Shown here in pieces: positions 12,675-56,992 of a stretch of DNA of 64,000 bases. The notes beneath the pieces were generated by a model. That model had not been told where the DNA came from and ran no database searches. It saw nothing but the letters and a program-made list of their open reading frames with translations. The position numbers and the translations under genes were made by a program. Numbering within the stretch: position 1 is the first letter of the stretch; the number at the start of each line of letters is the position of its first letter. This stretch comes from a virus (taxonomy: Duplodnaviria > Caudoviricetes), in IMG/VR virus record IMGVR_UViG_3300032007_000036, positions 67,443 through 131,442 of that record; one strand, 5' to 3'.

Positions 12675-13973
12675 TTATTTCTTATTTGCAGCATCGTTGA
12701 TCTTGGTAACGATCCTGTTACACAGAGTGCGGATACGTTCCATGTCAGTGACGCAGTAGCTGATGTGCATGACAACCTCAGCCACCCACTGTCCTTGTTT
12801 CTGGAGACCACGTTCAAGATTGGTGTCAGCTCCAGTTCCCATCTCACGGGAAGTCTTCAGGTTGTTTGCGTGCGCACGAGCAATTTCGCCTACCTGAGTC
12901 AGGAACACCTTGGACTCATTAATGTACTTGATGATACCATCCTGGTTCTCCATGCCAGAGCGGAGAAGAACCGATTTACAAGCGATGAGAAGGTTCTTGT
13001 AGTCTTCCTCATTCTTGAACACGGTGGTGTAATCAATGGCAGCAATGCTGGTATCCAGAACACCCTTGTTGAAGAAGATCGTCCCACCATTGTTCGTGAT
13101 AGAATAACCAGCTTTCTCAAGCATTGACTTGAGAGGACGAGGATTGTCCAAGAACCGAGTTCCGATGAATCCAACGATCGGGCTGGTCTTGATGACCTCA
13201 GCAGGATTGGACTCAATGTTCTCCATGAGTTTCTTCATAATGGCGTTGGGTGGGTTACGACCCTCACCACAGTACTCAAGGAACTTGCTGTCGACCAGAT
13301 CAGAAGGACCATTGACAGGAGACTTGGTTCCGCACACCTGAGGTGTCGTACGGCAGAGAGAGGTTGCAATGTTCATGTCAATGCAGAACCTGCTGATGAG
13401 CTCACGGATATCTAAGTTTAGACCTCCGCGACTACCAGCATCATTGACGGCTTTACCGATACGAAGTATACGTTCTTCAGTCGTTTCACCAGAATTGACA
13501 ATCTGGAGAGTCTTGATGCACTTGTCGATGATGTGAGTGTCACCTCTCCAAACACGGATAAGGCGGCTGAGGAATCCGACGATACGGTTGAACATATCGA
13601 CGATCCAGTCCCAGATCTTCTTGAGGATGGTTCCGATGGTGGCGAAGAGACCTTCCATGCAGACAGCACCCTTTTCCTCGTCAGTACCGAGAAGGTTAAC
13701 GAGCTCGACATTGGTGTTCTCAAGGAACGAACCGTCTTCGTTGACGAGGTTGAACCACTCGTCGGAGTAACCGTTGGCTTCTAGCGAACCCTTGATGGTG
13801 TCAAGAGCCTCAAGAGTAGCTACGAGCTGCTTGCCCATGAGGACGTTCTCGGCAAGCTGTTCTCTCGCCTCAGCGATCTGAACCTTGAGTTCGTCACAGT
13901 CCGGAAGTGAGTTGAGCAGCTGAGATGTTCTCTGGTTGATTGAACTCAGAGAAGTTCTGATTGATAGATTCAT
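12675..13973 (-). CDS. Inner head protein paralogue (phiKZ gp93-like family)
   Basis: Acidic propeptide, then CMEG followed by an amphipathic helix ILKKIWDWIVDMF. Confidence 0.7.
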   Translation of the reverse strand: MNLSIRTSLSSINQRTSQLLNSLPDCDELKVQIAEAREQLAENVLMGKQLVATLEALDTIKGSLEANGYSDEWFNLVNEDGSFLENTNVELVNLLGTDEEKGAVCMEGLFATIGTILKKIWDWIVDMFNRIVGFLSRLIRVWRGDTHIIDKCIKTLQIVNSGETTEERILRIGKAVNDAGSRGGLNLDIRELISRFCIDMNIATSLCRTTPQVCGTKSPVNGPSDLVDSKFLEYCGEGRNPPNAIMKKLMENIESNPAEVIKTSPIVGFIGTRFLDNPRPLKSMLEKAGYSITNNGGTIFFNKGVLDTSIAAIDYTTVFKNEEDYKNLLIACKSVLLRSGMENQDGIIKYINESKVFLTQVGEIARAHANNLKTSREMGTGADTNLERGLQKQGQWVAEVVMHISYCVTDMERIRTLCNRIVTKINDAANKK

Positions 13974-15550
13974 GATTTGTTTCCTGAAAGTTGTTTGAAC
14001 TTAGCCTCAAAGTATCCGAGGAGGTTATCACTCAGCTGATGGATATCAGTCATGAGTTCCTCCAGTTCCTGTTCGGCCCTACCGTTGGTGAACCAAGCGA
14101 TGAACGACGGCAGTGAGCAGTACTTCATGAAGAGTCGATACTTCTTCTGCATCAACTCGAAGTACTTGTCACTTCTGGATACGTTGTCAATGGTCGTGAG
14201 TATCGTCTCTATGTCCTTGATGTACTTGTCGACATACTCAGCCGAAGCTCCGTGGATCTTGAGCTGCTTGACAGAATGGTTGAGGATCTCTCTGTAACGC
14301 TCACTCGTTGGAGGATACGACCTGAAGGTATAATCACCGAAAGACTGCTGTACCCAAAACAGAAGTCTGAGTTTAGCATACAGACCGAGAGCTTTACCTT
14401 GAGCCTCTTCCTTGAGTAGAGCGGCAATATCTTTCTCAGACTTGCCTATCATTCCATAGAACTTCGTGATCTTCTCCAGAGCCGTAACTTGGTCTGCGCC
14501 GAATCCATGAGTGAATGCGTATTCATCTGCTTTGCGCTCCTGCCAAGTCCACATACGTTCACTTACAGGAAGATCAGCCAGCTTCTTCTTCTGTCCGTCA
14601 CGAAGTCTAAGTAAAAAACGCGTTCTGTCAGTAATAAGTAGATCCAGTGCTCCAGACAGGACAACCGACAACAGATAGAAAGCAGAACCTATCGTGCTAC
14701 CGATGAACGAAGCACGTGTAGGAGCAGGCATCCTCTGACCAGATGACTGATAGTCTTTCTCAGCCTGAGTTACAGCCTTAAGTAATCCAGCAGCTTCCTT
14801 GGTGTAGCCATTGGAAGAAGCAATGTTCGCAACTCTCTTGCCAAGTTCAATCGACTTCTCTACAGTAGCAGTCTTCTTGAAGTAGGCTTCAAGAGTCCTG
14901 AATGTAGCAGCACGAGCATACAGATCAGCAGCGTGTTCGACGAGGGTTAGGTTGTGTCCGATCTCGTGAAGCATGATAGCGGTAAGCTCACGGGCAGTGA
15001 GGTACTCAGCTCCACTGTTCTTGGGAAGATAGTCAACACTCAGAAATCCGAGAGACAGATCGAAACCGATTGCACAACGAACGATCTTCTTGATCTGTTC
15101 ACGATGCTCAGGTTTGATGATGCCCTTCTCGACATCATAGCTCTTAGCGAGAGCGATCAACTCATCCACAGTGAATTCCTCACCACGGAGAGAAGTGAAC
15201 CAATCACTAGCCTGACCATTGAGGCTGTCAACGATCTGACTTGTACCACGTGCAGTGAGCTCGTCACCCTTCTGTATGCAGATCCACGTGCAGAAGCTGA
15301 CCTCAAAATTCGGTTTGAAGAACACGGCTTCTATATTCAGTCCAGTGTTCTTGTAGACGATGTCGATGAAGCGCTTGGCTATCTTCTTAGCGAAGAAGTT
15401 CTGAATCGAAGTCAGTCTTCCCTGGAAAGACACACCGTTCAGATCGTTATCCCGGTAGTCTATAACTTCCTGGAATAGAGCTGTCAGCTCATCACCGATC
15501 TTGGATCGGGTGACGGCCGACATAGCTTCTAAAGATGGTGAAAAACGCAT
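13970..15550 (-). CDS. Virion protein with a zincin HEXXH motif (phiKZ gp86-like)
   Basis: ELTAIMLHEIGH and QERKADEYA (M48-like); N-terminal SLE cleavage motif. Confidence 0.75.
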   Translation of the reverse strand: MRFSPSLEAMSAVTRSKIGDELTALFQEVIDYRDNDLNGVSFQGRLTSIQNFFAKKIAKRFIDIVYKNTGLNIEAVFFKPNFEVSFCTWICIQKGDELTARGTSQIVDSLNGQASDWFTSLRGEEFTVDELIALAKSYDVEKGIIKPEHREQIKKIVRCAIGFDLSLGFLSVDYLPKNSGAEYLTARELTAIMLHEIGHNLTLVEHAADLYARAATFRTLEAYFKKTATVEKSIELGKRVANIASSNGYTKEAAGLLKAVTQAEKDYQSSGQRMPAPTRASFIGSTIGSAFYLLSVVLSGALDLLITDRTRFLLRLRDGQKKKLADLPVSERMWTWQERKADEYAFTHGFGADQVTALEKITKFYGMIGKSEKDIAALLKEEAQGKALGLYAKLRLLFWVQQSFGDYTFRSYPPTSERYREILNHSVKQLKIHGASAEYVDKYIKDIETILTTIDNVSRSDKYFELMQKKYRLFMKYCSLPSFIAWFTNGRAEQELEELMTDIHQLSDNLLGYFEAKFKQLSGNKS

Positions 15551-15649
15551 AAATGCTCTTTCTTAAAGTTGTTGATTTTAGTTATATTATCGTCTATTTA
15601 GTAGGCACTTTTACCAAAAATGACAGCAAAAAATGAAGAGATGAATAGA

Positions 15650-15685
15650 GGTACACACGGGGCACCGAAATGCCCCGTGTGTACC
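15650..15685 (-). terminator. Intrinsic terminator
   Basis: GGTACACACGGGGCA/TGCCCCGTGTGTACC stem; T-rich tract downstream on the minus strand. Confidence 0.75.
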
Positions 15686-15709
15686 GGTTGACTTGGACGG
15701 AGGGACTCC

Positions 15710-15835
15710 TTAGATACATGCTACGAGCATGCACCTGGAGACCATGAGTTTACTTACACCGAAGTGCATGATCAAGGGCGTTGACTCAACGCTACCTATC
15801 AACATGCTCCCCAACAGTGCCGGTAGACTAATCAT
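15710..15835 (-). CDS. 41-aa hydrophobic small protein (not in ORF track)
   Basis: MISLPALLGSMLIGSVESTPLIMHFGVSKLMVSRCMLVACI; GGAGG SD; GTATATATCAC promoter-like motif upstream; terminator downstream. Confidence 0.55.
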   Translation of the reverse strand: MISLPALLGSMLIGSVESTPLIMHFGVSKLMVSRCMLVACI

Positions 15836-15902
15836 GTTTAACCTCCATTCTTCAATCGCTTTGCCATCATGGCTTAGCAAATTAGTGATATATACTCAAC
15901 CG

Positions 15903-16904
15903 TTAATCATCTTCATTGGGGATCTGACCCTTCTGAAGAGTAGCGGCATCGCGAGCAGCTCTACCGATAACAGTGTCGATAGTAGCCACACGCTTGGTAA
16001 GTATCACCAGACCTGCTTGCGTGAAATTGAGAACTTTGGTCTTGAACACGAGTTTCTTCTGAGTTTCAGAAAGAGTGACGTCATCTGCTCCATCGGAGAC
16101 CTTGTTGTTGATCTGCCGTTTCAGTTCATTGATATCACTCTCCAGTTCGCGTTCAATGTTCTTGAGTTTGACAGCTGCTCCGCAGAGGTTGACATATGCA
16201 ACACATACAGAGTTAGCCTTCTTTAGAGACCACCCGCATGTGCCGTACGTACCAGAGATAACCTCAATGTTCTCGCTATCAGCATCAAGGAACTGTGTAC
16301 CGTTGAACTTGATTCCGCATCGTTCAGATTCACGAGTGATGTACATATCGACCCCCTCTGAGTCTCTGAACTCATTTGCGTCCCTAAGCATAAGTACGAT
16401 TTGGTGTGTGTGAGATATGTACTTATCAAGATCTTCCGGATTGACAGTGTCGAATACCTCAAGGTTAGCGAACTTGTCCGCTACTCCAGAAGTGGAGTCG
16501 GCCAACATGAACATCTGCCTGTACTTGACAGCTGTCGACGCTGCGCGGTACTGGGAGTTGAACATCCACCTGAAACAGTGCTTAACACCGTCCCAAAGCT
16601 TGAGAAGCATACGCCAGAGTTCAGAGATGACGCGCTTGACGATCTCCCACGCAGACTCTTCAGCTGCGCTGATCTCAATCACGTTCTCAGAGAACATGGA
16701 GCAGATATCCTCGTAGTCCTTGATGTAGTCAAGAACTTCAGTAGCAACAGGATCGTTCATCTTGTACTGCTTGGATAACCTGTCCGTAATGTCAATGCCT
16801 CTGTTGATCGCTTGTACAAGGATGTTAGAGCGACGGAACTCCTCGTCTATCTCTGCAGCATTGATGCGCAGATAACCGTTGGTTGTGTAGGAAAGTGTCA
16901 TCAC
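15903..16904 (-). CDS. Inner head protein paralogue
   Basis: SAAEES followed by the helix WEIVKRVISELWRMLLKLWDGVKHCFRWMF. Confidence 0.7.
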   Translation of the reverse strand: MMTLSYTTNGYLRINAAEIDEEFRRSNILVQAINRGIDITDRLSKQYKMNDPVATEVLDYIKDYEDICSMFSENVIEISAAEESAWEIVKRVISELWRMLLKLWDGVKHCFRWMFNSQYRAASTAVKYRQMFMLADSTSGVADKFANLEVFDTVNPEDLDKYISHTHQIVLMLRDANEFRDSEGVDMYITRESERCGIKFNGTQFLDADSENIEVISGTYGTCGWSLKKANSVCVAYVNLCGAAVKLKNIERELESDINELKRQINNKVSDGADDVTLSETQKKLVFKTKVLNFTQAGLVILTKRVATIDTVIGRAARDAATLQKGQIPNEDD

Positions 16905-18181
16905 TTAGCTCCTTCCCTGAAACGCTTGATACGCTCGACAGCAGTTCTCTTCTGTCCGTACTGGAACTCGGCTTCACACTTGAGGAACTGACCTACGATG
17001 ATGGAAGGTTTAGCACGACGAGCCGTCAGGTACTCTGACAACCTCGTAAGCCTGTACTCCCACGTGATGTAGGTCGAGTTACCGCACATGTTGCCTATGC
17101 ACAGCGCAGCATCAGGTGTTACTCCCATATAGGTTCCGACGATCTTGGATAGATCGGAATTGCCGTTGTAGTCGCAGCTGTTGAACACGCGTTCGCGATC
17201 AACTCCATCCTTGAAGCGCAACATGTTGATGTTGTAATTCTCTCCGGAGTGGATGAACGCAAACTTGGCGTAAGACCTGCTACCGCTGATCAGAGAGTTG
17301 ATGTACACCAACACACCGATAATAGCAACGATAGCTTCCCTGAGCTGATTGCATAGAGGAACGTCACGAGACATAACAGCTTTGCGCATGTCATCAAGCA
17401 AACGATCCCTGAGTAAATCAAGGATGTAGCGATGACACTTGGCGAAGGAGTTGCCGATGACGTAGTCGTCCTTGTCCTGACTGTAGAACGTAGTGTTCCG
17501 CGATGGGTCGTACTTGAGTATCGAGTCCGTGTTCTTGCTGAACTTGCTGTACTCTCTACCGATGACCTCAGGTATCGCAGCAGCATAAAGCGCTTTGCAG
17601 TTCTCAACTATGGAGTTGAGACTGCTAACAACTGGGTTGAATCCGGATACTGCATTGATGACTGCCTTAGGCAGCCTTATCCCTACAGGGATGGCCTGAC
17701 CGATCTCGCTGTAGCAAGCTACGTAGATGATCCTCTCGATAAATTCGATGGTTCTTCCAACACGGTAGTTATCCGCCATCTTGATCAGTTCCTTGGGGAA
17801 CGGATGGTCGATGAGATCGGCAACACCGATATCGGTAACAGGGCAGTTGATTGGTGATACGGCTTTAACTCCCTCAGGGGATCCGTTACACCATCTAGAC
17901 ATGACCTTGTACAGCGGCTCGTCCTTGTTCCAGCCGTAGTAACAGAACGGATCAAGATCAAAACTGCATTTGCTGCACAGATAAGTGTAGACTGTGTCGT
18001 CCTTGGTTACGAAATCCAACTCTTTAAAGAGCATGAACCAGGACGCGTACCTAGTCCAGTCACTCCAACCTAGAGTGTCATTGGACGAGTACGGTCCTGG
18101 ATCCATGGGAGCTTCACAACACCTGTCACACCCACCTGCTTGATCGTCTACCCAATTGTAGCCTCTTAAGTAGGTGAGCAT
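16901..18181 (-). CDS. Hypothetical protein in the structural operon
   Basis: 426 aa, coupled to both neighbours, Cys-rich N-terminus. Confidence 0.75.
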   Translation of the reverse strand: MLTYLRGYNWVDDQAGGCDRCCEAPMDPGPYSSNDTLGWSDWTRYASWFMLFKELDFVTKDDTVYTYLCSKCSFDLDPFCYYGWNKDEPLYKVMSRWCNGSPEGVKAVSPINCPVTDIGVADLIDHPFPKELIKMADNYRVGRTIEFIERIIYVACYSEIGQAIPVGIRLPKAVINAVSGFNPVVSSLNSIVENCKALYAAAIPEVIGREYSKFSKNTDSILKYDPSRNTTFYSQDKDDYVIGNSFAKCHRYILDLLRDRLLDDMRKAVMSRDVPLCNQLREAIVAIIGVLVYINSLISGSRSYAKFAFIHSGENYNINMLRFKDGVDRERVFNSCDYNGNSDLSKIVGTYMGVTPDAALCIGNMCGNSTYITWEYRLTRLSEYLTARRAKPSIIVGQFLKCEAEFQYGQKRTAVERIKRFREGAK

Positions 18182-18185
18182 GGTG

Positions 18186-19186: not shown

Positions 19187-20305
19187 TTAGAAGCGAGGAG
19201 CCTGGCCTGCAGCGAACACCGACATGAGCGTCTTCATGTCAACGGAGTCCTTGCTGCCTTTACCGACAGATTCTTTAATCTGCTCGACGGAATACTTTCC
19301 AGGGTTCTGCAACCCGTTGAAGTAGATGTCGACGGTTTCGTAGTTCGGATCGAATACGACAAGCATCATTGCCATGCAGCCAGTCATGATCTTCTGACGA
19401 ACGTCATAACGACGATAGTCGAGACCTTCATCCTTCATGATCCTGTCGATTGTACGACGAGAGATAACGATGATGGACGAAGCCGAGTTGTGGTTCCTCT
19501 TGGCTATCGGAGCCATAGCAGCGGCAGCCTTTGTGATCTGGGTTTTCTTGCGATCTTCCATCTCACGGAGGATACCTTCCTTATCGGCCTTCAGTGCTTT
19601 AGCACGCTTGGCCACCAAGTCTGCTTCGAAAATGAAGTCTTTCCAGAAAGAGATCTCACCGGCCTTGAACTTGGCCCAACGAGAAGACATCGACGGCGGG
19701 AAGTTCTTGCTGATGAACACTTCGAGAACGCTCGTCGGAGTCGTGAACGGAGCCAGCTGGACATAGAAGTACAGCGGGACAGATCCGCCCTTGCCGTCAG
19801 CAACCTTAACCTCAACCAGACGACCTGTGAACAGAGCCTGCTCAAGCTTGGTCTCCTTAACAGTGTTGCCCTTGTCGTGACCCTTCTCAGTGTTATCGTC
19901 CTCAAGGTTGTCTTTGACGTCACGAGCGATCTGCACGACATCTTCCATGCCAGCGATCACTTTAACGTTCTTGTCGCCGAACTTCTCCTTGATGACATCG
20001 AGGAACTGATGGAAGTCCTCAGTTGAGATCATCGCAGCCATGTCACGAACAGTACGGCCACCGGCAACCATGTTGCTGAGACCAACAGCCGTGAACACAA
20101 ATCCACCGAGAAGGTGATTGACGAACTTCATGATTGGAAGCATGCCGTCTTCACGGACGATGCTGTCCTCAATGTACGCACGGGAGGAGATCAAGGTCTT
20201 CTTCGTGTACTCAGTCAGAGATGTGACCGAACGGTCTTTCATCTCGCAAATGAAGTCAACGACTTCCTTGATACTTCCAACTGTATCACTTGCTACATCA
20301 CTCAT
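19187..20305 (-). CDS. Virion structural protein (phiKZ gp89-like)
   Basis: SLTEYTK..., RWAKFKAGEISFWKDFIF, and terminal G.APRF patterns recalled for this family. Confidence 0.75.
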   Translation of the reverse strand: MSDVASDTVGSIKEVVDFICEMKDRSVTSLTEYTKKTLISSRAYIEDSIVREDGMLPIMKFVNHLLGGFVFTAVGLSNMVAGGRTVRDMAAMISTEDFHQFLDVIKEKFGDKNVKVIAGMEDVVQIARDVKDNLEDDNTEKGHDKGNTVKETKLEQALFTGRLVEVKVADGKGGSVPLYFYVQLAPFTTPTSVLEVFISKNFPPSMSSRWAKFKAGEISFWKDFIFEADLVAKRAKALKADKEGILREMEDRKKTQITKAAAAMAPIAKRNHNSASSIIVISRRTIDRIMKDEGLDYRRYDVRQKIMTGCMAMMLVVFDPNYETVDIYFNGLQNPGKYSVEQIKESVGKGSKDSVDMKTLMSVFAAGQAPRF

Positions 20306-26744: not shown

Positions 26745-26746
26745 GA

Positions 26747-30328: not shown

Positions 30329-31120
30329 ATGTTTAAGTGGTTGAAAGATCTCTTTAGTTGGGGTGAGAAAGATGACCTCAACAAAGATGAACCGCTAACC
30401 AACGAAGAGGCCTACAGTCTTATCGTTGATGGGCGCAAGAAGTATAAACTGAATTGCGTCAAGGTTCCTGAGAGGGTCAAGACCAAAAGTCTCGCTGCGT
30501 TGGCGGCCAGTCCTAGGTTTACTGCACCTAAAACTGTAGACCTTCGTGACTACTGTACTCAGACAGAGAATCAGGGTAATCTTCCTTATTGTGCGGCATA
30601 CACAGCAGTAGGATTCGCTGAGAACGTGATGTGGCGTAGAGACGACTACATCACTCAGATTGATCCTGTTGCTATCTACAAGCGTGCAAAAGAAATAGAT
30701 GGAGATCCTGGAGAGGGAACCTCTCTTACCGCTGTTCTCGATGTTCTTCTCGAAAAGAAGTACTTCGACCCTAATCTCTGCAAGATCCAGGTTATTTATG
30801 ATACCATTGGATTTGAACAGTCTATCAAATACGCCATCCACAAGTTCGGGTGCTTACTCCTTGCGTGCGATATCACTGAAGAATGGTATCTCTGCGGTCC
30901 AAAGAAGACCGCTATAACTGGGAAGAACAACAATCGGTCTGTAGGTGGTCATGCTATACTCTGCTGCGGTTATAATCGTGACGGTGTTATTATCCATAAC
31001 TCTTGGGGTGAGGAATGGGGTGCTTATGGTTATGCCCTCATTACCTGGGAAGCACTCAGGAAACAGTTCCTGTATGCTGCTGTCCTTACCAACTGTCTTA
31101 ACAATTTGAAACTCAACTAA
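30329..31120 (+). CDS. Papain-like (C1 family) cysteine peptidase
   Basis: VDLR, QGNLPYCAAY (oxyanion Gln and catalytic Cys), GGHAIL (His), HNSWGEEWG..GY (Asn). Confidence 0.92.
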   Translation: MFKWLKDLFSWGEKDDLNKDEPLTNEEAYSLIVDGRKKYKLNCVKVPERVKTKSLAALAASPRFTAPKTVDLRDYCTQTENQGNLPYCAAYTAVGFAENVMWRRDDYITQIDPVAIYKRAKEIDGDPGEGTSLTAVLDVLLEKKYFDPNLCKIQVIYDTIGFEQSIKYAIHKFGCLLLACDITEEWYLCGPKKTAITGKNNNRSVGGHAILCCGYNRDGVIIHNSWGEEWGAYGYALITWEALRKQFLYAAVLTNCLNNLKLN

Positions 31121-31134: not shown

Positions 31135-32208
31135 ATGAAATTCGGTACACAGAGCGCTGAGCGTGCAGTACGTGCTGCAGCTGAAGACGCTGTAACTGCG
31201 GCCACTGAGGCCCTCGTTATCGGGCAGGATCTCGTGGCTGCTTCCGCTGAAGCAAAGGAACTCATGGATGTGATTGCCAACATCACTCTCATCAGTGACC
31301 TCATCAAGCAGAACGGTCTTAAGTCCAGCTACCATATGACCAAGAGCGTCCAGTCTTTTGCAGACAGCTTCGCTCTTGAGAGCTACACGGCTGGTATGGA
31401 TAATGCATCCGTCAAGCTTCTTGAAGCCAAGTATGTCGAGGCTTCTCAGGAAGGCGTTAAGGAGATGTGGACGCGTTTCCTTGAAGCCATTAAGACCCTC
31501 TGGGCCAAGCTGGTTCAGTGGATCAAGACCACGTTCACGATGCGAGGGATCTATCTCAACCGCATCAAGGACAAGCTTGAGAAGTTCGATGGCTTCGACT
31601 CTGAGGCCAGTGTGAAAGCGATGAAGAAGGATGATGCGGAATCCTGTATCAAGGTAATCGATGCGTTCCACAACATCTTCAAGACAAGTGCCAATGCTCG
31701 TGTCCCTGATGTATATGGTGGGTCGATTCCGTTCTTTGCCAACCCTGATGATCTAGTCGATGCGTTCGATGCTTGTGGCATCACTCTCTCGATGAAGGAT
31801 AAGGATGTTGACATGTCTTCCGCTGGGCGCACGATAGATGAGCTCTATCCTGTGGCTGAGAAGAAGGCTTCTGAGCTTGGTTATTCTAGCAGCGCTATCG
31901 TTACCGGAATTGCCAATCAGGTTAAGAGCATTGAGTCCAAGGCGGACTTCAAGAAGTGCGCTGGTAACGTCGAATCGTTCATCAAGAATACCTATGATGG
32001 AATCACGACTGCGATCAACTCCATCAAGGATGCGGATGGCTCTGGTGAGAAGGAGGTAGTCGAGAAAGTTCGTACGCGTGGTCAGTTGATCCGCGTGGTG
32101 AACAAGGCAATCACCCTTGAGAACACACTCATGGTTCGTGTGTGCAAGACTGTTCTTGCACTGCTCGATGCCAAGAAGAAGGAAGCTGCTGCTCCTGCTA
32201 ACGCGTAA
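31135..32208 (+). CDS. Inner head protein paralogue
   Basis: ALES and ASQEG followed by WTRFLEAIKTLWAKLVQWIK; clearly similar to 45389-46399. Confidence 0.75.
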   Translation: MKFGTQSAERAVRAAAEDAVTAATEALVIGQDLVAASAEAKELMDVIANITLISDLIKQNGLKSSYHMTKSVQSFADSFALESYTAGMDNASVKLLEAKYVEASQEGVKEMWTRFLEAIKTLWAKLVQWIKTTFTMRGIYLNRIKDKLEKFDGFDSEASVKAMKKDDAESCIKVIDAFHNIFKTSANARVPDVYGGSIPFFANPDDLVDAFDACGITLSMKDKDVDMSSAGRTIDELYPVAEKKASELGYSSSAIVTGIANQVKSIESKADFKKCAGNVESFIKNTYDGITTAINSIKDADGSGEKEVVEKVRTRGQLIRVVNKAITLENTLMVRVCKTVLALLDAKKKEAAAPANA

Positions 32209-40629: not shown

Positions 40630-41076
40630 CTACTTTTGTTTAGACGGATAGTACTTCTCTATGACTTCATCGAACACGTCGAATCCGTTCTGTGCTCTAG
40701 GCATACCAGTATTCTTGTCGATCTGGACTGCAGAGTCATCACAGAAGAACATCATTTCCCAGTCCTTTTCAGAAGTGACAGGGAGTTCTTCCCCTATGTG
40801 CTTCTTCGCCCACGCCCTGATGACATTGGCCATGTCTTCATAGGAGACCTTGTTCAATGACCTAGAAGCGTGAGACAGTCTAGCAGTGAAGATCTTGACT
40901 ATAATTCCTCTCTTCCTCCAGGCTTTGATCCTGTCGACCATCTTCGGTACAGGATCACCTATGTAATCCCAACTTTTGAAGTGATCGTACTTGGCGAGAG
41001 TACCATCCAGATCCACTCCTATCCATCCCTGAGCTTTAGGTTTGTCTTGGTCTTCCCTAGTGGCAAATTTGATCAT
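40630..41076 (-). CDS. HAD-superfamily (capless, PNK-phosphatase-like) protein
   Basis: WIGVDLDGTLA (motif I), IFTAR, K, and CDD (motif IV). Confidence 0.85.
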   Translation of the reverse strand: MIKFATREDQDKPKAQGWIGVDLDGTLAKYDHFKSWDYIGDPVPKMVDRIKAWRKRGIIVKIFTARLSHASRSLNKVSYEDMANVIRAWAKKHIGEELPVTSEKDWEMMFFCDDSAVQIDKNTGMPRAQNGFDVFDEVIEKYYPSKQK

Positions 41077-44111: not shown

Positions 44112-45269
44112 TTATGCAGAGAGTTCCTTGAGAGGAAGCGCCGACACGTCCCTGGCAGCAATAGACAGTGCTGCAGGCATCTTCTTGGCGTGAGCAAGCA
44201 TCTGTGCACGAATCTGCATCATGTACATAACAGCCTGCATAGCCTGGAACTTGAGCCTCTGAATCTCTTCGTCGTCACCGGAGCTGTTACCGAGTTTGTT
44301 TTTGATCTCAGTAACAGCGGTGTCGCAAGACTTGCCGAGATTCTGGCATCCGAGGTAGATCACACCGTTGTTGGTAAGAAGACCAGCAACCTTGTTGCAA
44401 TCTTCGAGTGACTTGATACCTGCTTTCTCGCAGGTGACCTCAGACCACTCTGCCTCGATGATGTTGTTCTCAACGTCGTTCTTGTCCGTGATCTGGAGAA
44501 GCTCAGCTTTGGATTTGGTGCACCAATCCTTCGCCTCACGAATAGCAAGAGCATATTCTTCTTTGCTCTTAGCAGACTTAAACTTATTCAGGATACCATC
44601 GCACAGACCCATCAAGCTGCGTATCTTCTCGAAGAGAGTGCTGAGCCACTTCTTGAGGTTAGCAAGCGACAAGAAACTGAATATACCTTTCTTGGTCTTC
44701 TTCTCATCAGCTCCGCAGAACTTCTTGAACCCGTCGTAAGCTGCCTTTGTTGAAGCAACAGACTTCGGGACCGGTTCAGTCTTGACCTTCTCCTTAGCCT
44801 TCTCGACTTTCTCCTTGGGAGCTTCAGTTTCTTTCTTCTTGGCATCGCGCATGTTTTGCTGTGTCTGCTGATCAGCATCCGTAACCGCCTTGGCAGAAGC
44901 ATCGTTCTTGAAAAGACCTTTGATCCAGTCAATGAAACGTTTTACCCATTCAGATACCGTGTTCCACGCATCCTTGAGAAGACCTTCCATACCAGCCTGT
45001 ACTTTAACAGTGCTGAGTGCTTCGCATGCACACCCAAGAGACTTGGCAAGAGTTCCTTCAGGATCGCAGTTGTCGATGTACCACTGAACGCCGTTCTTCG
45101 CGATGCAATCCTGAGCGAACTTCATGTTGTCGATCACAGTACCTAGTTCGTTAACTTCAATACCGAGAGCAAGAACTGATTCGTAAGCGGAATAAACTTC
45201 TTCCGCCTGATCGAACAGATCAGTCATCTCCACCGTGGAAGACTGATCCTGCGTACCGAATTTGATCAT
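44112..45269 (-). CDS. Inner head protein paralogue
   Basis: AGMEG followed by AWNTVSEWVKRFIDWIKGLF. Confidence 0.75.
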   Translation of the reverse strand: MIKFGTQDQSSTVEMTDLFDQAEEVYSAYESVLALGIEVNELGTVIDNMKFAQDCIAKNGVQWYIDNCDPEGTLAKSLGCACEALSTVKVQAGMEGLLKDAWNTVSEWVKRFIDWIKGLFKNDASAKAVTDADQQTQQNMRDAKKKETEAPKEKVEKAKEKVKTEPVPKSVASTKAAYDGFKKFCGADEKKTKKGIFSFLSLANLKKWLSTLFEKIRSLMGLCDGILNKFKSAKSKEEYALAIREAKDWCTKSKAELLQITDKNDVENNIIEAEWSEVTCEKAGIKSLEDCNKVAGLLTNNGVIYLGCQNLGKSCDTAVTEIKNKLGNSSGDDEEIQRLKFQAMQAVMYMMQIRAQMLAHAKKMPAALSIAARDVSALPLKELSA

Positions 45270-45388: not shown

Positions 45389-46399
45389 TTACTTGGCCTT
45401 GGGAGCCTTGTAACCGACCTTGACCGCCTTCGCGAGCTGGGCACCGATCTTGAGAACGAGCTTGTTCTCATAACGGACCATCTCGAGAGCCTGGCGATAA
45501 GCCTCGTACTTGTCCTTGATAGCCTGACGCTTGGCATCTCCAGTAGAACCTTCGATGTTGGCAGCGGCGCCGGCTTCCTTGACGAGAGCATCCATACCAG
45601 CCGTGAGGTACTTGGACGCGTTCTGGAGCTGCACGCTGCGAGCCGCGTTGATGTACCAGGAGACATGCTCCACGAGCGTCTGGAAGGAGAAGAGAGACGA
45701 GAGTTTGGCTTCCTGCCGGCTCTTGCTGCAGAAATCGTCGATCGACTTCTTGTTGCCCTCCCATCCCTTGAGTTCGCGCATACCGTTGCCACCGACCTTG
45801 GCCGTCTTGACGGCGGTCTCGATCATGGTGACGAGAGCAGCGTGCGTGGACTCGATCTGCTTGAGCTCCTGCTGACCAGCGCAAGCGACCATAGCATCGC
45901 CGTTGAAGCTCTCAGCCTTCCAGGTCTTGATGACCTCGACGGCCTTGATGTACTTCGCACGCGCGGTGAAGAGCGACTTGAACCAGTTGACGATCTTCGC
46001 CCAGAGGTTCTTGAGGTACTGAACGAACTTCGCCCAGTACTCAGCCATCTTGCCCTCGACGCCCTCGACATACTTGGCCGAGAGAGCCTTGACCTGATCC
46101 TCACCGAGCGCTTCGAGACCAGCAACCGTCAGATTCTCCTGACCGATGCAAGCCGAGAGTTCGCCTTCGGAGTTGAACACGCCAAGCACATTGGCCGTGA
46201 GACCGCCGTTCTTGAGCGACTCGCAGGCAATCGACAGATTGTCGAACACCTGGCAGATTTCGGCGCCATCAGCCTGAGCTTCCATGAGCGCTTCGGTAGC
46301 GGCGGAAAGCTCTTCGATCGACTCGATGAGCGACTCCTCACTAGCGACAACACTCTTGACACGCTGCAGGGATGCATTCGTATCGAACTTAAGTGCCAT
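45389..46399 (-). CDS. Inner head protein paralogue (probably abundant)
   Basis: AGLEA and GVEG followed by YWAKFVQYLKNLWAKIVNWFKSLF; very strong C/G-ending codon bias. Confidence 0.8.
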   Translation of the reverse strand: MALKFDTNASLQRVKSVVASEESLIESIEELSAATEALMEAQADGAEICQVFDNLSIACESLKNGGLTANVLGVFNSEGELSACIGQENLTVAGLEALGEDQVKALSAKYVEGVEGKMAEYWAKFVQYLKNLWAKIVNWFKSLFTARAKYIKAVEVIKTWKAESFNGDAMVACAGQQELKQIESTHAALVTMIETAVKTAKVGGNGMRELKGWEGNKKSIDDFCSKSRQEAKLSSLFSFQTLVEHVSWYINAARSVQLQNASKYLTAGMDALVKEAGAAANIEGSTGDAKRQAIKDKYEAYRQALEMVRYENKLVLKIGAQLAKAVKVGYKAPKAK

Positions 46400-46464: not shown

Positions 46465-47274
46465 TTACAACCACTCATAATCCCATGCTACATACTTAAA
46501 TTCACCGACGGAATAGGTTCTGTTGATACCAAGAGTACGGATTTTACCTATTTGTTCATAGGTGTCACCTCTAGCAGGATCATACCAGTTTACCACGAAG
46601 GCTTGATCCTCCTCATGAGCTATTAGCCTAAGGAATCCGATTATGGAATGTGTAGCCGGGCTCCTGATAGTTCCACCTTTTTCGAAATCAAGATGAAACT
46701 TACTCGTGCACTTCTCGAATGTTGCTTCGATTAGGTCTTTGTCAGGAGTTCCGGTGTCAGAACGAACAAGAATAGCTTGTTTGGTCTTGTTCTTGAGGTA
46801 GTCTGACTTAGATACTAACTTGATCCTCTCGGCAGTAGCATCCATGAGATAGATCTCATCCTTAATGTTGATAAGGTTGAAGACATGTCCGCTACCAGAC
46901 TCCCATGTAGTTGAGATAATGGCTCTTGCACCATTTCCCCACTTCTTCATAGTAGATTCGATCTTGCTGACGCAGTCCTTCCCAGGAATAGCAACAGGAT
47001 CAATCTTCTTGAATAGGTGCCACATGGCATGTGGTGACTTACTTCCATTAGGAACGTCGAATACCCTGTCGAACGGAGAGTTAGTCGGAGTTACCTCCTT
47101 ACTTACGCCTCTGTACTTGAGTTCCAGAGCAGCAGCAAACTTCTGACAATTGTTGGAGACATTGAACTTGCTAAGTTCCTTGAGGAATTTCTTGGCTTTC
47201 TTGATCTCTGGATCTTCAGGGTCTCCTGGTTTTGTATCCTTAGATTCTAGAGCCAATTCGAATTTCACTTTCAT
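46465..47274 (-). CDS. Papain-fold toxin-like (Tox-PL/glutamine deamidase-type) domain protein
   Basis: NNCQKFAAALELKYRG (Cys), GARAII..W..GSGHVFN (His), IYLMDA (Asp); N-terminal ALES. Confidence 0.7.
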   Translation of the reverse strand: MKVKFELALESKDTKPGDPEDPEIKKAKKFLKELSKFNVSNNCQKFAAALELKYRGVSKEVTPTNSPFDRVFDVPNGSKSPHAMWHLFKKIDPVAIPGKDCVSKIESTMKKWGNGARAIISTTWESGSGHVFNLINIKDEIYLMDATAERIKLVSKSDYLKNKTKQAILVRSDTGTPDKDLIEATFEKCTSKFHLDFEKGGTIRSPATHSIIGFLRLIAHEEDQAFVVNWYDPARGDTYEQIGKIRTLGINRTYSVGEFKYVAWDYEWL

Positions 47275-47930
47275 TTGAATACCTCGCTGTCCGGTTTAGT
47301 GTATCTTTCTCCAGGATTAGGTATTGACTGTTCAAGTTTGAAAGTTTTCTTAGATTTCTTTCCTTTGAATACACCGTTTCCGAGATGTTCTAGTTCTTCC
47401 CACTCGCACCCCTTAAGAAGTTTGGATGCGATGATTATTTCAGGATAAGCGTCTTTCGGATGATGCTTGTCAAAATATTCCAGAGTACCTAGATACAAAC
47501 CACCCTTCATTTCGCTCAATTTTTTACCAAACCTCTTTAGTACACGTTGTTCATGTTCCTTAAACGCTTTTTGCAACTGTTTGTCGCTATAGTCGCCATT
47601 AATGACAGCATCTCGCATCTTCTTAAGAAGCTCCGGATGTTTAGTGTGGATGAAATGATAGTGTGAATTCAATCCACAACACATCGTCGTACCGGCGAGA
47701 TTCTTTGGACGTTTGATGGCGTATATTCTATCAGTTTCATTTTTGAAATAATGACCGATCCAAGAGTAGATGACTGGGGATATGTAGATCTCGTCAGTTG
47801 CGTTTTCTAAAGGGTCATCCTTAGACCATGAACCAGATTTAAGAGGGTTGTTCCCGTCTGTAATTCTGAAAACGTACTCAACGTAAAACTTATCAGTTGA
47901 CTCGTTTTTTAGACTAAATTTAACAGCCAT
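47271..47930 (-). CDS. Hypothetical protein
   Basis: 219 aa, in an operon with toxin-like genes. Confidence 0.75.
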   Translation of the reverse strand: MAVKFSLKNESTDKFYVEYVFRITDGNNPLKSGSWSKDDPLENATDEIYISPVIYSWIGHYFKNETDRIYAIKRPKNLAGTTMCCGLNSHYHFIHTKHPELLKKMRDAVINGDYSDKQLQKAFKEHEQRVLKRFGKKLSEMKGGLYLGTLEYFDKHHPKDAYPEIIIASKLLKGCEWEELEHLGNGVFKGKKSKKTFKLEQSIPNPGERYTKPDSEVFK

Positions 47931-47943: not shown

Positions 47944-48960
47944 TCATTTCGTATACTCTTTTTCTGGTTTACAAGTCATTACTTTGGATCCTTTTCTGCA
48001 GAACGTTTCGAATTCTGTCATATCGCATCCGTATTTAGGATAGCCTGATAATTCATGGATTTGTATTTCTTTTCTATCCATGTTAGCCATGGCTGTTCCT
48101 ATCCACTTGATAAGATCTTTGGGATTCTTGGCGTGCCAGTCATTGTTCTTGAACGGGCCCCAAGATCCTTCTAGCCACTTCCATTCATCGTCAGTGTCCC
48201 AGTAGATAAGGAACGTGTGAGTTGGGCAATCCATGAACACTCCGTCCTTATCAACCATGAAGAATGTCCTGAACTGAATGTTCTTGGCTCTCTTTAGGTA
48301 CTCTCTACTTATAGCGACTGTATCATAACAATTTCCAACTTCGGCCTTAATAGTTTGTTCTGGAGTACCAAGTCTCCATATAGATTCTACATTTCCTCCC
48401 AACTTTTGAAATTCTTCTTCGTTATGTACAGCTTCGCCAGTATTAGGATTTCGCCAACCGTAATGAATCTTACTGAAGATATTCTTGATTTCTTCTATAG
48501 GAGTGAAGACCCTTTCATATTCCCAGTCGCATGGCTTGCCTACATAATCAGTGTCGGTATCTTTACGATGAACAATAAGAGTATGTTCTTTACCGGCAGA
48601 CACTACTTTAATCATCATTTTGTATTTGAGCTTTACCGGACACGTCACCCACACTTCATGCGTTATGTGTACATCCGGCACCATGTCTTTTGTAGGATAG
48701 ACTATGTTGCTCTTAAGTTTGTCAGGAGATATATCAGGTTCAAATACATAAAAGACTTTTCCTAGTATGTTTCTACCAAGACCAGTCAAACATTTTCCAA
48801 TAGACCTGGCAAACGACACTCTCTTGGTCTCACCGTCTTCAACTCCCCACTTGATAAATTCGTTGTTTGGAACTCTAGGTGTAAGAATCTTACCATTTAG
48901 GTTCTGCTCACTAATGTGATAAAGCCTAGGAACAGAATCTTTACCAAAATTGACTTTCAT
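47944..48960 (-). CDS. Two-domain protein: putative ADP-ribosyltransferase-fold N-domain plus transglutaminase-like C-domain
   Basis: LYHIS...RVSFA...VPD..ITHEVW; GNCYD...THTFL...WLE (Cys-His-Glu). Confidence 0.55.
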   Translation of the reverse strand: MKVNFGKDSVPRLYHISEQNLNGKILTPRVPNNEFIKWGVEDGETKRVSFARSIGKCLTGLGRNILGKVFYVFEPDISPDKLKSNIVYPTKDMVPDVHITHEVWVTCPVKLKYKMMIKVVSAGKEHTLIVHRKDTDTDYVGKPCDWEYERVFTPIEEIKNIFSKIHYGWRNPNTGEAVHNEEEFQKLGGNVESIWRLGTPEQTIKAEVGNCYDTVAISREYLKRAKNIQFRTFFMVDKDGVFMDCPTHTFLIYWDTDDEWKWLEGSWGPFKNNDWHAKNPKDLIKWIGTAMANMDRKEIQIHELSGYPKYGCDMTEFETFCRKGSKVMTCKPEKEYTK

Positions 48961-50289: not shown

Positions 50290-50350
50290 AAAAGAAACCG
50301 CACTGGAATGTGCGGCTCTTCCTCCACCCTTGCAGGTGGAGTAACCGGTG

Positions 50351-51156: not shown

Positions 51157-51219
51157 AAAAAGAATTCCCTACCCTGATGCGGACAATCCGCATCAGGGTA
51201 GGTTATTATCCAACACACT

Positions 51220-53067: not shown

Positions 53068-53568
53068 CTAGACAATGTGTTCTACGTTGACCATATCGGC
53101 TTGCAGAGAAGCCTCAACACAGTCTGCCAGAAGCAGTCCTGTAGATTCGGCTACTCTGCGGATATCGTCACGGTTGACCCACATGAGTCCACCGCACTTT
53201 TCAGGCTCTTCATTCCGAGCTTGATACCAGATGCTATCTGGATAGCACTCCTGGCTGTCAACATGGAAGACAAATGTCTCGACGTTGACTAGTGTACCAT
53301 CGAAGTCGTAGGTCTTCTTGAACTGTGTCCTGAGGTTGACATGAGCTTCGTTGATCATAGTGTCCTGTAGCTTGACACCTAACTCCTCCCACATCTCACG
53401 GCATAACGCATTGAAGAGGAATTCATCCTTGTGGACTTTACCTATAGGAAGAGTAAGCATGTGGTGCTTTAGGTTGATGCTCAAGAGCCACTTCTTCTCG
53501 TGAGTTGCGAGCAGAGCTACTGTGCGATGGTCAACCTTGTCTTCGGCATTGAACTGTTGTTCTTTCAT
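53068..53568 (-). CDS. NUDIX hydrolase
   Basis: LPIGKVHKDE....ALCREMWEELG Nudix box; NEEPEKC..L.W; start at MKEQQ with AAGGAG SD. Confidence 0.85.
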   Translation of the reverse strand: MKEQQFNAEDKVDHRTVALLATHEKKWLLSINLKHHMLTLPIGKVHKDEFLFNALCREMWEELGVKLQDTMINEAHVNLRTQFKKTYDFDGTLVNVETFVFHVDSQECYPDSIWYQARNEEPEKCGGLMWVNRDDIRRVAESTGLLLADCVEASLQADMVNVEHIV

Positions 53569-53821
53569 CTGTTTCTCCTTTGTAGTCAGGATCCTTTTTG
53601 TAGATCCCTTTTGTCCAGTAGGACGAGTTTTTGTCTTGTTTCCAGTGAGTCTTACCACAGTACCACTGACCACTGCCAACGAATCCATGTGTAGGAAGTG
53701 CTCCCAGCATGAATCCATGGCAGTGCTTTCCACATACAGGACAAGTGAAGAACTTCCTCCACTTCTCGTACTCCTCTTGTTCAGCTCTCCAATCTCTTTT
53801 TGGTTTGAGTATTGACATCAT
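53531..53821 (-). CDS. Small Zn-finger protein
   Basis: CPVCG..C and YC motifs; 96 aa. Confidence 0.55.
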   Translation of the reverse strand: MMSILKPKRDWRAEQEEYEKWRKFFTCPVCGKHCHGFMLGALPTHGFVGSGQWYCGKTHWKQDKNSSYWTKGIYKKDPDYKGETDERTTVQCRRQG

Positions 53822-54923: not shown

Positions 54924-55823
54924 TTAGTCACCAACTTCGACTTTGCAAACACGAGCGAGACGGTAGAGCGCACGCTTGGCGGCTAGGAAGTTATTTTCCA
55001 GAGCACCAATCGTGAAGAACCAGCCTCCATCGTAGTCGTAGATGGAGCAGCAGCCGTACATGAAAATGTGCCACAACTCCTTCATACCCAACGGAAGCTT
55101 GCCAGTGTGATCTACACGTAATTTGTCCGAAGCAAAGTCGCAGAGAGTGTTGTTCGCTGCGTACATTGCCTTGGTGAACTGACCGATCTTTCCTGAATCT
55201 TCAACGAACTCTCTCCAACTGTCAAAGATAGGCGCGAAGTCATTTGGATTTGTGTAGCCAAGTTGTTTGTATGTCTTGCCCTTGGAATCGTTGTTCCAAA
55301 TGTCTACAGTGTGATCTGTTGCGCCGCACTTGGCAAAGTACGTGTTGTCAGAGTACATTGCAACCACATGGACAGGATTAGTCTTCTGAGACTTGATGGT
55401 CTTGGCCATATCGAGACACTTCTTGTTGAACTCGGCAAGTTTACCGACTTCCTTTCCACGGAGGAACTCTGCCACATCCTTATCTGAGATCGACATCATC
55501 TTCTTGAACATAGGAATAACCTGTGAGTTCAAGAATGAAGTAGCTCCAGGAATAGCAGTGAGGAAATTAGCAAACTCTTGCTTGCTGTACATCGGATAGC
55601 CAGCTTCGCGATCACTCATATCGGCGAAGGCTTCCATATCAGCATTGCCCAACGCAGCTACTATCTTCTTGCAGTCTGCTGCTTTCAATAAGTCAGAGGC
55701 GTTGGATTTCATCCTGTCTTTGACATCCTTCAACCAAGATATCAGACCTTCCTGACCAGGAGAAACAAACTCCCTGCGTGTGGGATACTTTTTCTCCAGA
55801 TCAAGGGAATTTAGTTTAACCAT
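54924..55823 (-). CDS. Inner head protein paralogue (short propeptide)
   Basis: PGQEG followed by LISWLKDVKDRM; TYKQLGY motif shared with other paralogues. Confidence 0.65.
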   Translation of the reverse strand: MVKLNSLDLEKKYPTRREFVSPGQEGLISWLKDVKDRMKSNASDLLKAADCKKIVAALGNADMEAFADMSDREAGYPMYSKQEFANFLTAIPGATSFLNSQVIPMFKKMMSISDKDVAEFLRGKEVGKLAEFNKKCLDMAKTIKSQKTNPVHVVAMYSDNTYFAKCGATDHTVDIWNNDSKGKTYKQLGYTNPNDFAPIFDSWREFVEDSGKIGQFTKAMYAANNTLCDFASDKLRVDHTGKLPLGMKELWHIFMYGCCSIYDYDGGWFFTIGALENNFLAAKRALYRLARVCKVEVGD

Positions 55824-55912
55824 AGGTTGGCATTCCGTAATCTTCTCGTGAAAATAATTGACACAGACTACCCCGAGAATTGAGGAGGATAGACTGTCTG
55901 TGCTTCAAGCAC

Positions 55913-56992
55913 TTACTGTTGTTCTATCAAACACGCCTGACATACACGCATAGCGGTAGTCCAAGACATGTCGAAAGCTTTCGTGTAGATGTTGACCATC
56001 TGGGCAACAAGAGAGGCATACTTGACAAGTGCCGCACACACGTACGGATCCTTGGTGCAGTAGTCCGTCGAAATACGACGAACCTCATCCATGATGTCGA
56101 CCGTGATCTGGTACAGAGCCCTGAAGTCTCTGCTTATTCCCTCAGCGTTCTTGAGAACGAGAGATTCCTTCACCTGATCGACATCAGTCCATCCTGCCTC
56201 AAGTAGAGTCTGACTCATCTCAAGTTTGTTGAACCTTTCGCTAGGCACAACCTTAACCAGACCCTCGATACCGTTAACATCCGGTTCCCCGAAAGTCAAC
56301 TCTACCAAGTTCCTGGCCTTGAGATACTTCATCATCTCACCTTCGTGGAGCATTTCAGTGAGGTTCTTGAGTTCGGCTTTGATCCCATCGTCATTTGACT
56401 TCGAGAAGTTCCTCCTCATCCTACCTAGAACCTGAAGCCAAGCCTGTAACGCCTTTACCTGGTTCCTGCTACCATCCACTATAGGGTTGCCGATCTCGCA
56501 GTAGTCTCCATAAGTCATGACAACCATGCGCATGGAGGTATCGATCTCTACGAACTTGCTAGTGTCTATACTCTTGTTCACTCTGAGTTTTTTGATAAAG
56601 AAGTCGAATAGTCCAGTCGAGTACTGTTTGACAGTGCTCGTCATGGTCTGAACGAACGTCGTGATTTTCTTGGCGTAATCATCGACTGCTCCTTCGAGCC
56701 CTGAGTGAATGTCGTGAAGAGAGTAGTCCTTGTTACTTGCGATGACCGAGTTGACGACGCTTCGAACCTCAGCAGAACTAGATGCTATCTGCTCCAGCGA
56801 TAAACAACCAACAGTGGCAAGCCTGTCAATTCTCTTCTGTGCAAGTTTGCAATTGACCATTGCGGTACAGTCATTCCTGAGCGATGTGTGCATCGCAGGC
56901 AACGACTGCCGCAGTTTGACAAGGTCCTCTTCGATGAGTCCCATGTCTCGCAGCGACTCCGTAGAAGCCGATGCATTGAAACTAATAGCCAT
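55913..56992 (-). CDS. Inner head protein paralogue
   Basis: STES, SLEQ and SGLEG sites; TLLEAGW motif; ATTTTATG upstream. Confidence 0.7.
   Translation of the reverse strand: MAISFNASASTESLRDMGLIEEDLVKLRQSLPAMHTSLRNDCTAMVNCKLAQKRIDRLATVGCLSLEQIASSSAEVRSVVNSVIASNKDYSLHDIHSGLEGAVDDYAKKITTFVQTMTSTVKQYSTGLFDFFIKKLRVNKSIDTSKFVEIDTSMRMVVMTYGDYCEIGNPIVDGSRNQVKALQAWLQVLGRMRRNFSKSNDDGIKAELKNLTEMLHEGEMMKYLKARNLVELTFGEPDVNGIEGLVKVVPSERFNKLEMSQTLLEAGWTDVDQVKESLVLKNAEGISRDFRALYQITVDIMDEVRRISTDYCTKDPYVCAALVKYASLVAQMVNIYTKAFDMSWTTAMRVCQACLIEQQ

Follow-up and report, generated by a model that had tools for sequence, protein, structure and literature searches.

PhiKZ-like phages eject hundreds to thousands of internal proteins into the cell, and how these are loaded is an open question. 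It is approached here through a 64,000-nucleotide stretch of viral DNA (the window), in which genes for predicted head proteins and for unrelated enzymes share a short N-terminal leader. The window is the right half (positions 67443-131442) of the linear IMG/VR viral contig IMGVR_UViG_3300032007_000036 (131,442 bp; G000), whose completeness is ∼49% by CheckV. A preliminary description had proposed that the start M-x(0-2)-K-F is a modular tag by which diverse effectors are loaded into the head for injection. We found that the leader exists, is modular, is selected at the protein level, tracks phage lineage and in most cases ends in the motif published for phiKZ-type prohead proteases, and that a homolog of these proteases is present on the contig. 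With moderate confidence, we regard it as this clade's version of the phiKZ-type internal head protein propeptide, reused on enzymes as a tag that resembles the capsid-targeting sequence (CTS) of T4.

The leader in the window and on a related contig

All nine N-termini listed in the preliminary description are present at the starts it gave. The head-type genes begin MKFGTQSAE (31135, +), MIKFGTQD (45269, -), MALKFDTN (46399, -), MAISFNASASTE (56992, -) and MRFSPSLE (15550, -), and the enzyme and unknown genes begin MIKFATRE (41076, -), MKVKFELALE (47274, -), MAVKFSLKNE (47930, -) and MKVNFGKD (48960, -). A Shine-Dalgarno-like site precedes most of them. The strict motif, ^M.{0,2}KF, fits 6 of the 9 starts, and MAISF, MRF and MKVNF are relaxed forms only. 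The tagged enzymes were said to be non-homologous to each other, and an all-against-all BLASTP comparison within the window bore this out, returning the 31135 and 45389 genes as its only related pair.

Motif frequencies were counted on the 126 open reading frames (ORFs) of at least 60 aa in the 131-kb contig; unrelated IMG/VR loci supplied a background of 1,376 ORFs. The strict motif is enriched, but modestly, with 6/126 contig ORFs against 1.67% of the background (∼3-fold; binomial p = 0.02), and all six ORFs fall between 31135 and 47930. Such figures could reflect chance and paralogy, since proteins often start M-K and some related genes may have inherited one N-terminus. Three leader bearers (31135, 44112 and 45389) are paralogs by BLASTP and hidden Markov model (HMM) comparison, and a relaxed match, at 41860, is probably fortuitous. 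A second pattern, ^M.{0,2}[KRND]F[GD], was derived independently from a related contig, IMGVR_UViG_3300029305_003320 (83.9 kb; G001), whose orthologs are 45-70% identical to window genes. It fits 5/126 ORFs in G000 against 0.8% of the background (p = 0.0036), and 11/105 in G001 (p = 1e-9). The MKRFGSF, MAKRFGE and MAKVKIG proteins of G001 are DUF6273 fibre-like and were not counted as leader bearers.

Eight adjacent, mutually unrelated genes of G001 all begin M[KR][VI][ND]FG. Mean pairwise identity in this array is 0.74 over residues 2-6 and 0.07 over residues 12-31, and eight such starts on genes without detectable similarity past residue 6 argue strongly against chance (p ∼1e-9). So does an IMG/VR DNA-motif scan for the MKVNFG leader: among the matches listed (80 of at least 119 stretches), G001 is the only contig with more than one match (three), and the other contigs have single matches, as chance predicts. 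A corresponding scan for the MFKYSLE dialect gave no match at ORF starts. The cargo folds also differ (HAD, NUDIX, papain-fold deamidase, and ADP-ribosyltransferase (ART)-like plus transglutaminase-like). Chance with paralogy, effectively refuted by the G001 array together with the homolog and enrichment data, is hardly credible as an explanation.

A conserved 5' end might also act at the nucleic-acid level, as a translation-initiation enhancer or as a recombination homology patch for cassettes, with no role for the peptide. Highly expressed genes often have AAA as their second codon and a start rich in A/T, and T4 internal-protein loci exchange cassettes at conserved ends. The arrays of G000 (40.6-49 kb and 53-57 kb) and G001 (34.7-41.4 kb) differ in both order and content. 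However, the codons of the G001 leader vary synonymously (K as AAA/AAG, V as GTA/GTC/GTT, N as AAC/AAT, F as TTC/TTT, G as GGA/GGC/GGG), so that third positions vary freely while residues are kept, and the regions upstream of the copies, with their ribosome-binding sites, are not conserved between copies. Selection therefore acts on the peptide. An (S/A/G)-x-E motif, described below, is likewise conserved as peptide at variable distances from the start. We give a purely nucleic-acid role little credence; a recombination role could coexist with targeting.

Homologs of the cargo genes extend the picture. Three genes of the G001 array are orthologs of the window HAD, ART/transglutaminase-like and Gln-deamidase genes, whose own leaders are MIKFATRE, MKVNFGKD and MKVKFELALE. 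The ten closest homologs of the HAD protein measure 151-158 aa and in some cases come from 266-281-kb contigs; they bear an N-terminal extension of 12-17 residues that starts MIKF.., MAVKF.., M[KR]VNFG.., MRIKLS.. or MIKLGLE... Most of the 30 N-termini inspected among remoter homologs open directly at the catalytic GWIGVDLDGT, and the catalytic motif lies at a median residue 10 in the remoter hits listed versus residues 21-25 in the clade. Among metagenome homologs of the Gln-deamidase, 20 of 22 have a leader ending in (S/A/G)-x-E; P0172 has none and P0159 is N-terminally truncated. In the 219-aa family, 2 of 4 homologs are leaderless (P0176 and P0178), and P0174 begins MIKLSLE followed by S. 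N-modules are swapped in the transglutaminase-like family (31 homologs), most full-length members of which keep a leader-like start. A side observation concerns a 198-aa leader-bearing gene of G001 (37847-38443, -; L015:18847-19443), whose product corresponds to the N-module fused to the transglutaminase-like domain in P0016 and P0021-P0030, indicating domain shuffling among leader-tagged genes.

The proposal of a modular tag on unrelated proteins is thus strongly supported, by the leaderless homologs in the HAD, Gln-deamidase and 219-aa families, by near-identical leaders on the eight unrelated G001 neighbours, and by leaders on PF12699-like internal head proteins. A short extreme-N-terminal peptide is shared by otherwise unrelated proteins in the window and in G001, and the cargo genes are clustered at loci whose content varies between relatives. 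The dialects KF, NFG, NLG/KL and YS[LC]E recur on the three larger cargo families; the leader therefore follows phage lineage, not cargo. Judging from the sequences, this is the behaviour that would be expected of a signal co-evolving with a lineage-specific receptor.

The motif as first proposed proved both too narrow and too loose, as it missed the NUDIX gene, and its relaxed form matched 41860 (MIVRFDY), probably falsely. The 41860 gene sits behind an early-type cassette and was dropped. The consensus is M-x(0-2)-[KRND]-[FLY]-[GSAE]...(S/A/G)-x-E, with lineage-specific dialects.

Predicted head proteins, leader endings and the prohead protease homolog

The source phage is uncultured and distantly related to the phiKZ-like jumbo phages. 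BLASTP against phiKZ ORFs identified on G000 homologs of the terminase, sheath, split RNA polymerase subunits, gp175-like protease, gp88 and inner-body gp89, together with a match to the portal-sized phiKZ ORF 130364-133054, which we take to be the portal gene. No major capsid protein homolog lies on G000, and this gene is presumably in the missing half of the genome. Virion proteins of 201phi2-1 and Phabio share ∼25% identity with a 1409-aa protein (22073-26302). Megablast of 20 kb, and tblastn of 47944-48960, 28497-30116, 13970-15550 and 55913-56992, gave zero matches to cultured phages, so that this collection holds no close relative with a studied virion proteome by these searches. Protein-based IMG/VR scans recovered G001 as the sole relative contig; a metagenome scan added a more distant 265-kb relative (L009), with one MRYSLEAL-type gene within the 20 kb examined.

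The label 'head protein' given in the preliminary description holds for the 31135, 45269 and 46399 genes, which are PF12699-like with borderline scores. The 31135 product matches PF12699 weakly (14.5 bits) and is a paralog of the 45389-46399 product (29% identity, E 1e-13), which itself scores 24.3 bits (Pfam) and 26.6/27.9 bits (cut-off 27). The 44112-45269 product is matched over residues 3-120 by an HMM of the 31135, 45389 and G001 paralogs (E 5.6e-8), and 18% of members in its nearest Atlas clusters carry PF12699. For 56992 the label is a language-model lead, with PF12699 on 12-30% of members of the nearest Atlas clusters (score 0.91), and for 15550 it comes from synteny. An HMM that we built from phiKZ gp92-97 and the 165066-166634 ORF had too little power to classify window proteins. 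A 362-aa ORF (45332-46420, +), probably spurious, runs antisense to 45389-46399 and is longer than the real gene, so that longest-ORF callers choose the wrong strand.

The locus is syntenic with the phiKZ gp86-gp97 head gene block. Window 19187-26302 corresponds to phiKZ gp89, gp88 and ORF 84986-87901, and the operon runs on through 12675-19169. Its anchor is the gp89 homolog, which also matches phrog_3239/23804 'virion structural protein'. The 13970-15550 gene lies downstream of these homologs, and its G001 ortholog begins MLSLGTE followed by A, keeping the [SG]-x-E-A site and losing K/R-F. The G001 ortholog of the adjacent 12675-13973 gene matches the paralog HMM (E 1.3e-4).

A protease of the gp175 family (MEROPS S80, T4 gp21-like) is predicted on G000 outside the window. 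It matches phiKZ 178350-179162 by BLASTP (E 8e-9) and, by tblastn, annotated 'head maturation protease' genes of RSF1, RP12 and Eowyn. The PF03420 (T4 gp21) profile did not match this protein, which was found by PHROG and BLAST. The protease itself begins MAENVIFSISTELE (MNGNNVVFSISTQME in L009), like the MAISFNASASTE start of 55913-56992, and thus may bear a leader-like N-terminus ending S-T-E.

The published motif of the phiKZ prohead protease is (S/A/G)-x-E, and that of SPN3US A-x-E (PMC5694885, PMC10052503). A Glu occurs within 16 residues in 36 of the 46 distinct leaders, and P3 is S, A or G in 29 of the 36; this comparison is with the motif of the phiKZ/SPN3US protease, which may not be the specificity of the protease of this phage. 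In the window, the x-x-E site that had been described as often following within ∼10 aa is seen within 8-21 residues in 8 of 9 genes. The N-termini of phiKZ gp93, gp94, gp95 and gp97 end in S-L-E after 11-13 residues, three further ORFs have such N-termini of 14-17 residues, and that of gp92 ends similarly, in L-L-E. Cleavage has been reported at SLE-13 of phiKZ gp93 and at ARE-12 of the SPN3US paralogs gp53/gp54, whose first 15 residues, MANFVKSKLARESVE, are identical, a conservation that the authors termed 'reminiscent of the T4 CTSs' (PMC5694885, PMC10052503). The gp53/54 start (MANFVKSKLARE) is a short N-terminal leader comparable to those in the window, and its M-x-N-F start and S-V-E ending are close to MRVNFGISVE of G001. 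Mass-spectrometric evidence of N-terminal cleavage is published for phiKZ and SPN3US only (PMC5694885, PMC10052503).

The leader could be a real protein-level signal with another destination or process. A ClpP-like protease of the phage or the adjacent papain-like peptidase might recognise it, so that the cargo is activated or degraded at a set time, or it might sort proteins relative to the early infection vesicle or phage nucleus of chimallivirus-type phages. Modularity and lineage tracking suit any receptor-based signal, toxin-like cargo might require controlled activation, two ClpP/S49-like genes follow the prohead protease, and a C1 peptidase adjoins the 31135 gene. This explanation accounts less well for a leader that mostly ends in the prohead-protease motif and is common to PF12699-like proteins, whose homologs are head-packaged. 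BLASTP found no chimallin homolog in the contig, which is incomplete, and we know of no linear N-terminal import signal in chimallivirus-type phages. We consider another destination unlikely. The C1 peptidase is an alternative candidate processing enzyme, for which roles in processing or lysis are possibilities. It is kept in G001 (68%) and L009 (42%), is flanked by a small lipoprotein gene (30151-30324) and the 31135 gene, and has remote homologs in Lak megaphages, XacN1 and Stenotrophomonas jumbo phages.

Putative cargo genes and upstream elements

The coordinates of the leader-bearing genes, related head genes, proteases and upstream elements are collected in Table 1.

Table 1. Genes and elements at the leader locus. 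Coordinates refer to the window unless G000 is given.
Feature	Coordinates	Strand	N-terminus and remarks
phrog_2767 protein (E 9e-17)	13970..15550	-	MRFSPSLE followed by A; position equivalent to phiKZ gp90-97 operon
Weak PF12699-like protein	12675..13973	-	MNLSIRTSLSS, no K-F; 14.2 bits; absent from the preliminary list
phiKZ gp89 homolog (inner-body protein)	19187..20305	-	BLASTP to phiKZ 88994-90157, E 2e-19
Papain-family C1 cysteine peptidase	30329..31120	+	PF00112 34.3 bits (cut-off 20.7); directly upstream of 31135
PF12699-like internal head protein paralog	31135..32208	+	Leader MKFGTQSAE; S-A-E at residues 7-9
HAD-superfamily phosphatase-like enzyme	40630..41076	-	Leader MIKFATRE plus linker; catalytic DLDGT at residue 22
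Internal-head-protein-like paralog	44112..45269	-	Leader MIKFGTQDQSSTVE
PF12699 (phiKZ_IP) protein	45389..46399	-	Leader MALKFDTN...VVASE; A-S-E at residues 19-21
Papain-fold glutamine deamidase toxin domain (residues 41-146)	46465..47274	-	Leader MKVKFELALE followed by S, then acidic, Pro-rich linker
219-aa protein, no assigned function	47271..47930	-	Leader MAVKFSLKNE; conserved MCCG.NS motif
Putative two-domain effector (ART-like N-domain, transglutaminase-like Cys-protease C-domain)	47944..48960	-	Leader MKVNFGKD
NUDIX hydrolase	53068..53568	-	PF00293 26.1 bits; MKEQQFNAE followed by D, degenerate leader
299-aa protein, no family match	54924..55823	-	MVKLNSLDLE; possible K-L dialect, weak assignment
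Possible internal head protein	55913..56992	-	Leader MAISFNASASTE; S-T-E at residues 10-12
gp175-like prohead protease homolog	G000:16414-17247 (outside window)	-	phrog_3014 E 8e-31
∼57-bp cassette copies	41870-41926, 49820-49845, 50237-50293, 51104-51160, 57535-57591, 60053-60109		
Starts preceded by ATTTTAT[AG]	6227, 28301, 33682, 36451, 41076, 45269, 54819, 56992		

Several cargo products resemble toxin-type enzymes. The HAD protein has PHROG and NCBIfam matches of HAD type. The deamidase domain scores 32.3 bits against PF15644 (Gln_amidase, papain-fold toxin 1; gathering threshold 24.1), and its homologs likewise match this family. The 47944-48960 product was modelled with AlphaFold2 at a mean predicted local distance difference test (pLDDT) score of 87, with residues 1-7 below 50. 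In VIA-align comparisons, residues 153-336 matched CPR-C4 (Z 11.2; root-mean-square deviation 3.5 over 151 aligned) and vasohibin (Z 10.0), and residues 9-153 matched TreX (Z 7.0), ParT (Z 5.8) and CARDS (5.4). The model thus places the C-domain in the transglutaminase-like cysteine protease fold (vasohibin/LapG/CPR-C4), and C211 and H248 are invariant in 33 sequences of the family. The 219-aa protein gave weak ART-fold hints only (Z ≤ 4.9), and residues 1-14 of its model have pLDDT below 50; the leader residues are accordingly disordered in both models.

The longest ORF of the NUDIX gene (53068-53733, -) opens with a GTG without a ribosome-binding site, and ATG 53568, preceded by AAAGGAG, is probably the true start. 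Its G001 ortholog begins MKIDFGTE followed by D. The start of the 299-aa protein resembles the MVKLEI, MKVNLG and MIKLGLE starts of homologs elsewhere.

Two kinds of upstream element were distinguished. A ∼57-bp cassette with TATAAATTAC (gene-strand ...TATAAATTACATCTGTAGTCTATAACCACAAAGGAG) immediately precedes six genes, most of them small, and resembles an early-type promoter with a leader; upstream of the DNA polymerase gene is a similar TA[TA]A[TA]ATTAC element. The N-terminal leader had been said to be missing from genes behind this cassette. This applies to 5 of the 6, and the sixth, 41860, fits the relaxed pattern only; no gene headed by either element has a convincing leader. The motif ATTTTAT[AG] occurs 10 times on both strands of the contig, in 9 cases in orientation and 31-46 nt upstream of an ORF start, and appears to be a second promoter-like class that includes leader genes. 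It precedes leader genes 41076 (ATTTTATAG, 37 nt upstream), 45269 (ATTTTATAG, 36 nt) and 56992 (ATTTTATG, 34 nt), the operon in which the 31135 gene sits, behind ATTTTATG at 28301, and also non-leader genes.

A further side observation concerns two adjacent genes. The 533-aa protein 36594-38195 (-) is 85% identical between G000 and G001, where neighbouring genes are 45-70% identical, and the adjoining 781-aa protein 38207-40552 (-) has a signal-peptide-like start and YadA-head repeats (PF05658). The two may form a recently exchanged host-recognition module.

Proposed role and comparison with known systems

If the leader is a reused internal head protein propeptide, its first 6-10 residues (M-x(0-2)-[KRND]-[FLY]-[GSAE]), exposed and disordered, would dock on some part of the prohead core during assembly and so carry the attached protein inside. 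Cleavage by the phiKZ-type prohead protease would follow, C-terminal to the (S/A/G)-x-E found at the end of most leaders, and would leave the mature cargo in the head until its ejection together with the DNA. Besides PF12699-like proteins, this cargo would comprise toxin-like enzymes encoded in a shuffled array. Core binding, cleavage, packaging and injection are thus the putative steps of this scheme. Capsid loading for injection would fit the leader endings, the presence of the protease on the contig and the published cleavage of phiKZ gp93 and SPN3US gp53/54. The disorder of the leader residues in both models, and the upstream motif that leader genes have in common with the operon of the 31135 head-protein gene, also speak for it.

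Several points weigh against this interpretation. The leader is degenerate within the window and its enrichment there is modest. The G001 ortholog of the 31135 head protein begins MDKILLQDVGSE, without the NFG leader, so that in G001 the tag is not common to the one head-protein ortholog checked. A Glu within 16 residues is lacking in 10 of the 46 leaders, including one HAD and eight transglutaminase-like starts (seven of the ..LYHIS type and P0006), and in the window neither T-R-E of the HAD leader nor K-N-E of the 219-aa one conforms to (S/A/G)-x-E. Candidate binding partners, the major capsid protein and any scaffold, lie off the contig. Long phiKZ-like propeptides (>100 residues) and uncleaved packaged proteins mean that other loading routes exist. 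Finally, the 'late' class to which we take ATTTTAT[AG] to belong is presumed by likeness to phiKZ promoters.

A broader version is more tentative, and we put it forward as a conjecture that may well fail: phiKZ-like (chimallivirus-type) phages may possess a portable capsid-targeting code, a 6-10-residue N-terminal peptide that co-evolves with the prohead core of each lineage ('dialects') and recruits toxin-type enzymes as an injected first-strike arsenal. This arsenal would comprise the ART-like/transglutaminase-like, glutamine deamidase, NUDIX and HAD phosphatase proteins. If so, the same code would explain the loading of inner-body proteins in phiKZ and SPN3US, and any protein could be packaged into these capsids. 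A short, transferable, sequence-defined leader would make head loading directly testable, and virion cargo would become predictable from sequence in uncultured jumbo phages. Such a leader would also single out a set of enzymes, several of them toxin-type, whose action probably falls at the very start of infection, ahead of any phage gene expression, and which are candidates for host takeover or counter-defence.

The preliminary description had put the system forward as a candidate for an undescribed one, which is true in part. Earlier publications cover the T4 CTS and the conserved N-termini that are cleaved from SPN3US gp53/54 and phiKZ gp93 (PMC5694885, PMC3012670), but in the literature searched we found no account of the leader on unrelated enzymes in phiKZ-like phages, nor of lineage-specific dialects. 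By term search, 'targeting sequence' does not occur in a 2026 review (PMC13282480), and the Goslar virion paper, in the passages covered, mentions no loading signal.

The T4 CTS is found on the internal proteins IPI-III, Alt and gp24, from which the prohead protease gp21 cleaves it off (Mullaney & Black 1996; reviews PMC3012670, PMC5694885). Like it, the leader is a short extreme-N-terminal peptide on diverse proteins of one phage, mostly with an x-x-E site at its end, and in both cases the set of cargo genes differs from one relative to the next and some encode enzymes (T4 Alt is an ADP-ribosyltransferase). Unlike the CTS, the leader is known here from sequence alone, and it has another sequence, with S/A/G at P3 instead of the L/I of gp21 sites. 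By inspection, the leaders are of K/N-F-G/S types and not T4-type in sequence; the leader is therefore an analogue of the CTS and not a member by sequence. It also belongs to a phiKZ-like lineage with a gp175-family protease, and toxin-type enzyme domains, not small basic proteins, dominate its cargo.

Bacterial polymorphic toxins combine a constant N-terminal trafficking or marker address with interchangeable C-terminal toxin domains, and the PF15644 glutamine deamidase, ART and transglutaminase-like folds are part of their repertoire. The likeness is of logic only, as a phage peptide of 6-10 residues stands against bacterial secretion addresses of tens to hundreds of residues.

The PF12699 propeptides of phiKZ-type phages share with the leader both the viral lineage and the protease family. 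The M-x-N-F type start recalls SPN3US, and the ...SLE ending recalls phiKZ gp93-95 and gp97. In phiKZ and SPN3US, however, the conserved N-terminus is reported on internal head protein paralogs only and is followed by long propeptides (>100 residues), whereas here the leader and a short linker sit directly on unrelated enzymes, in a shuffled array and with lineage dialects.

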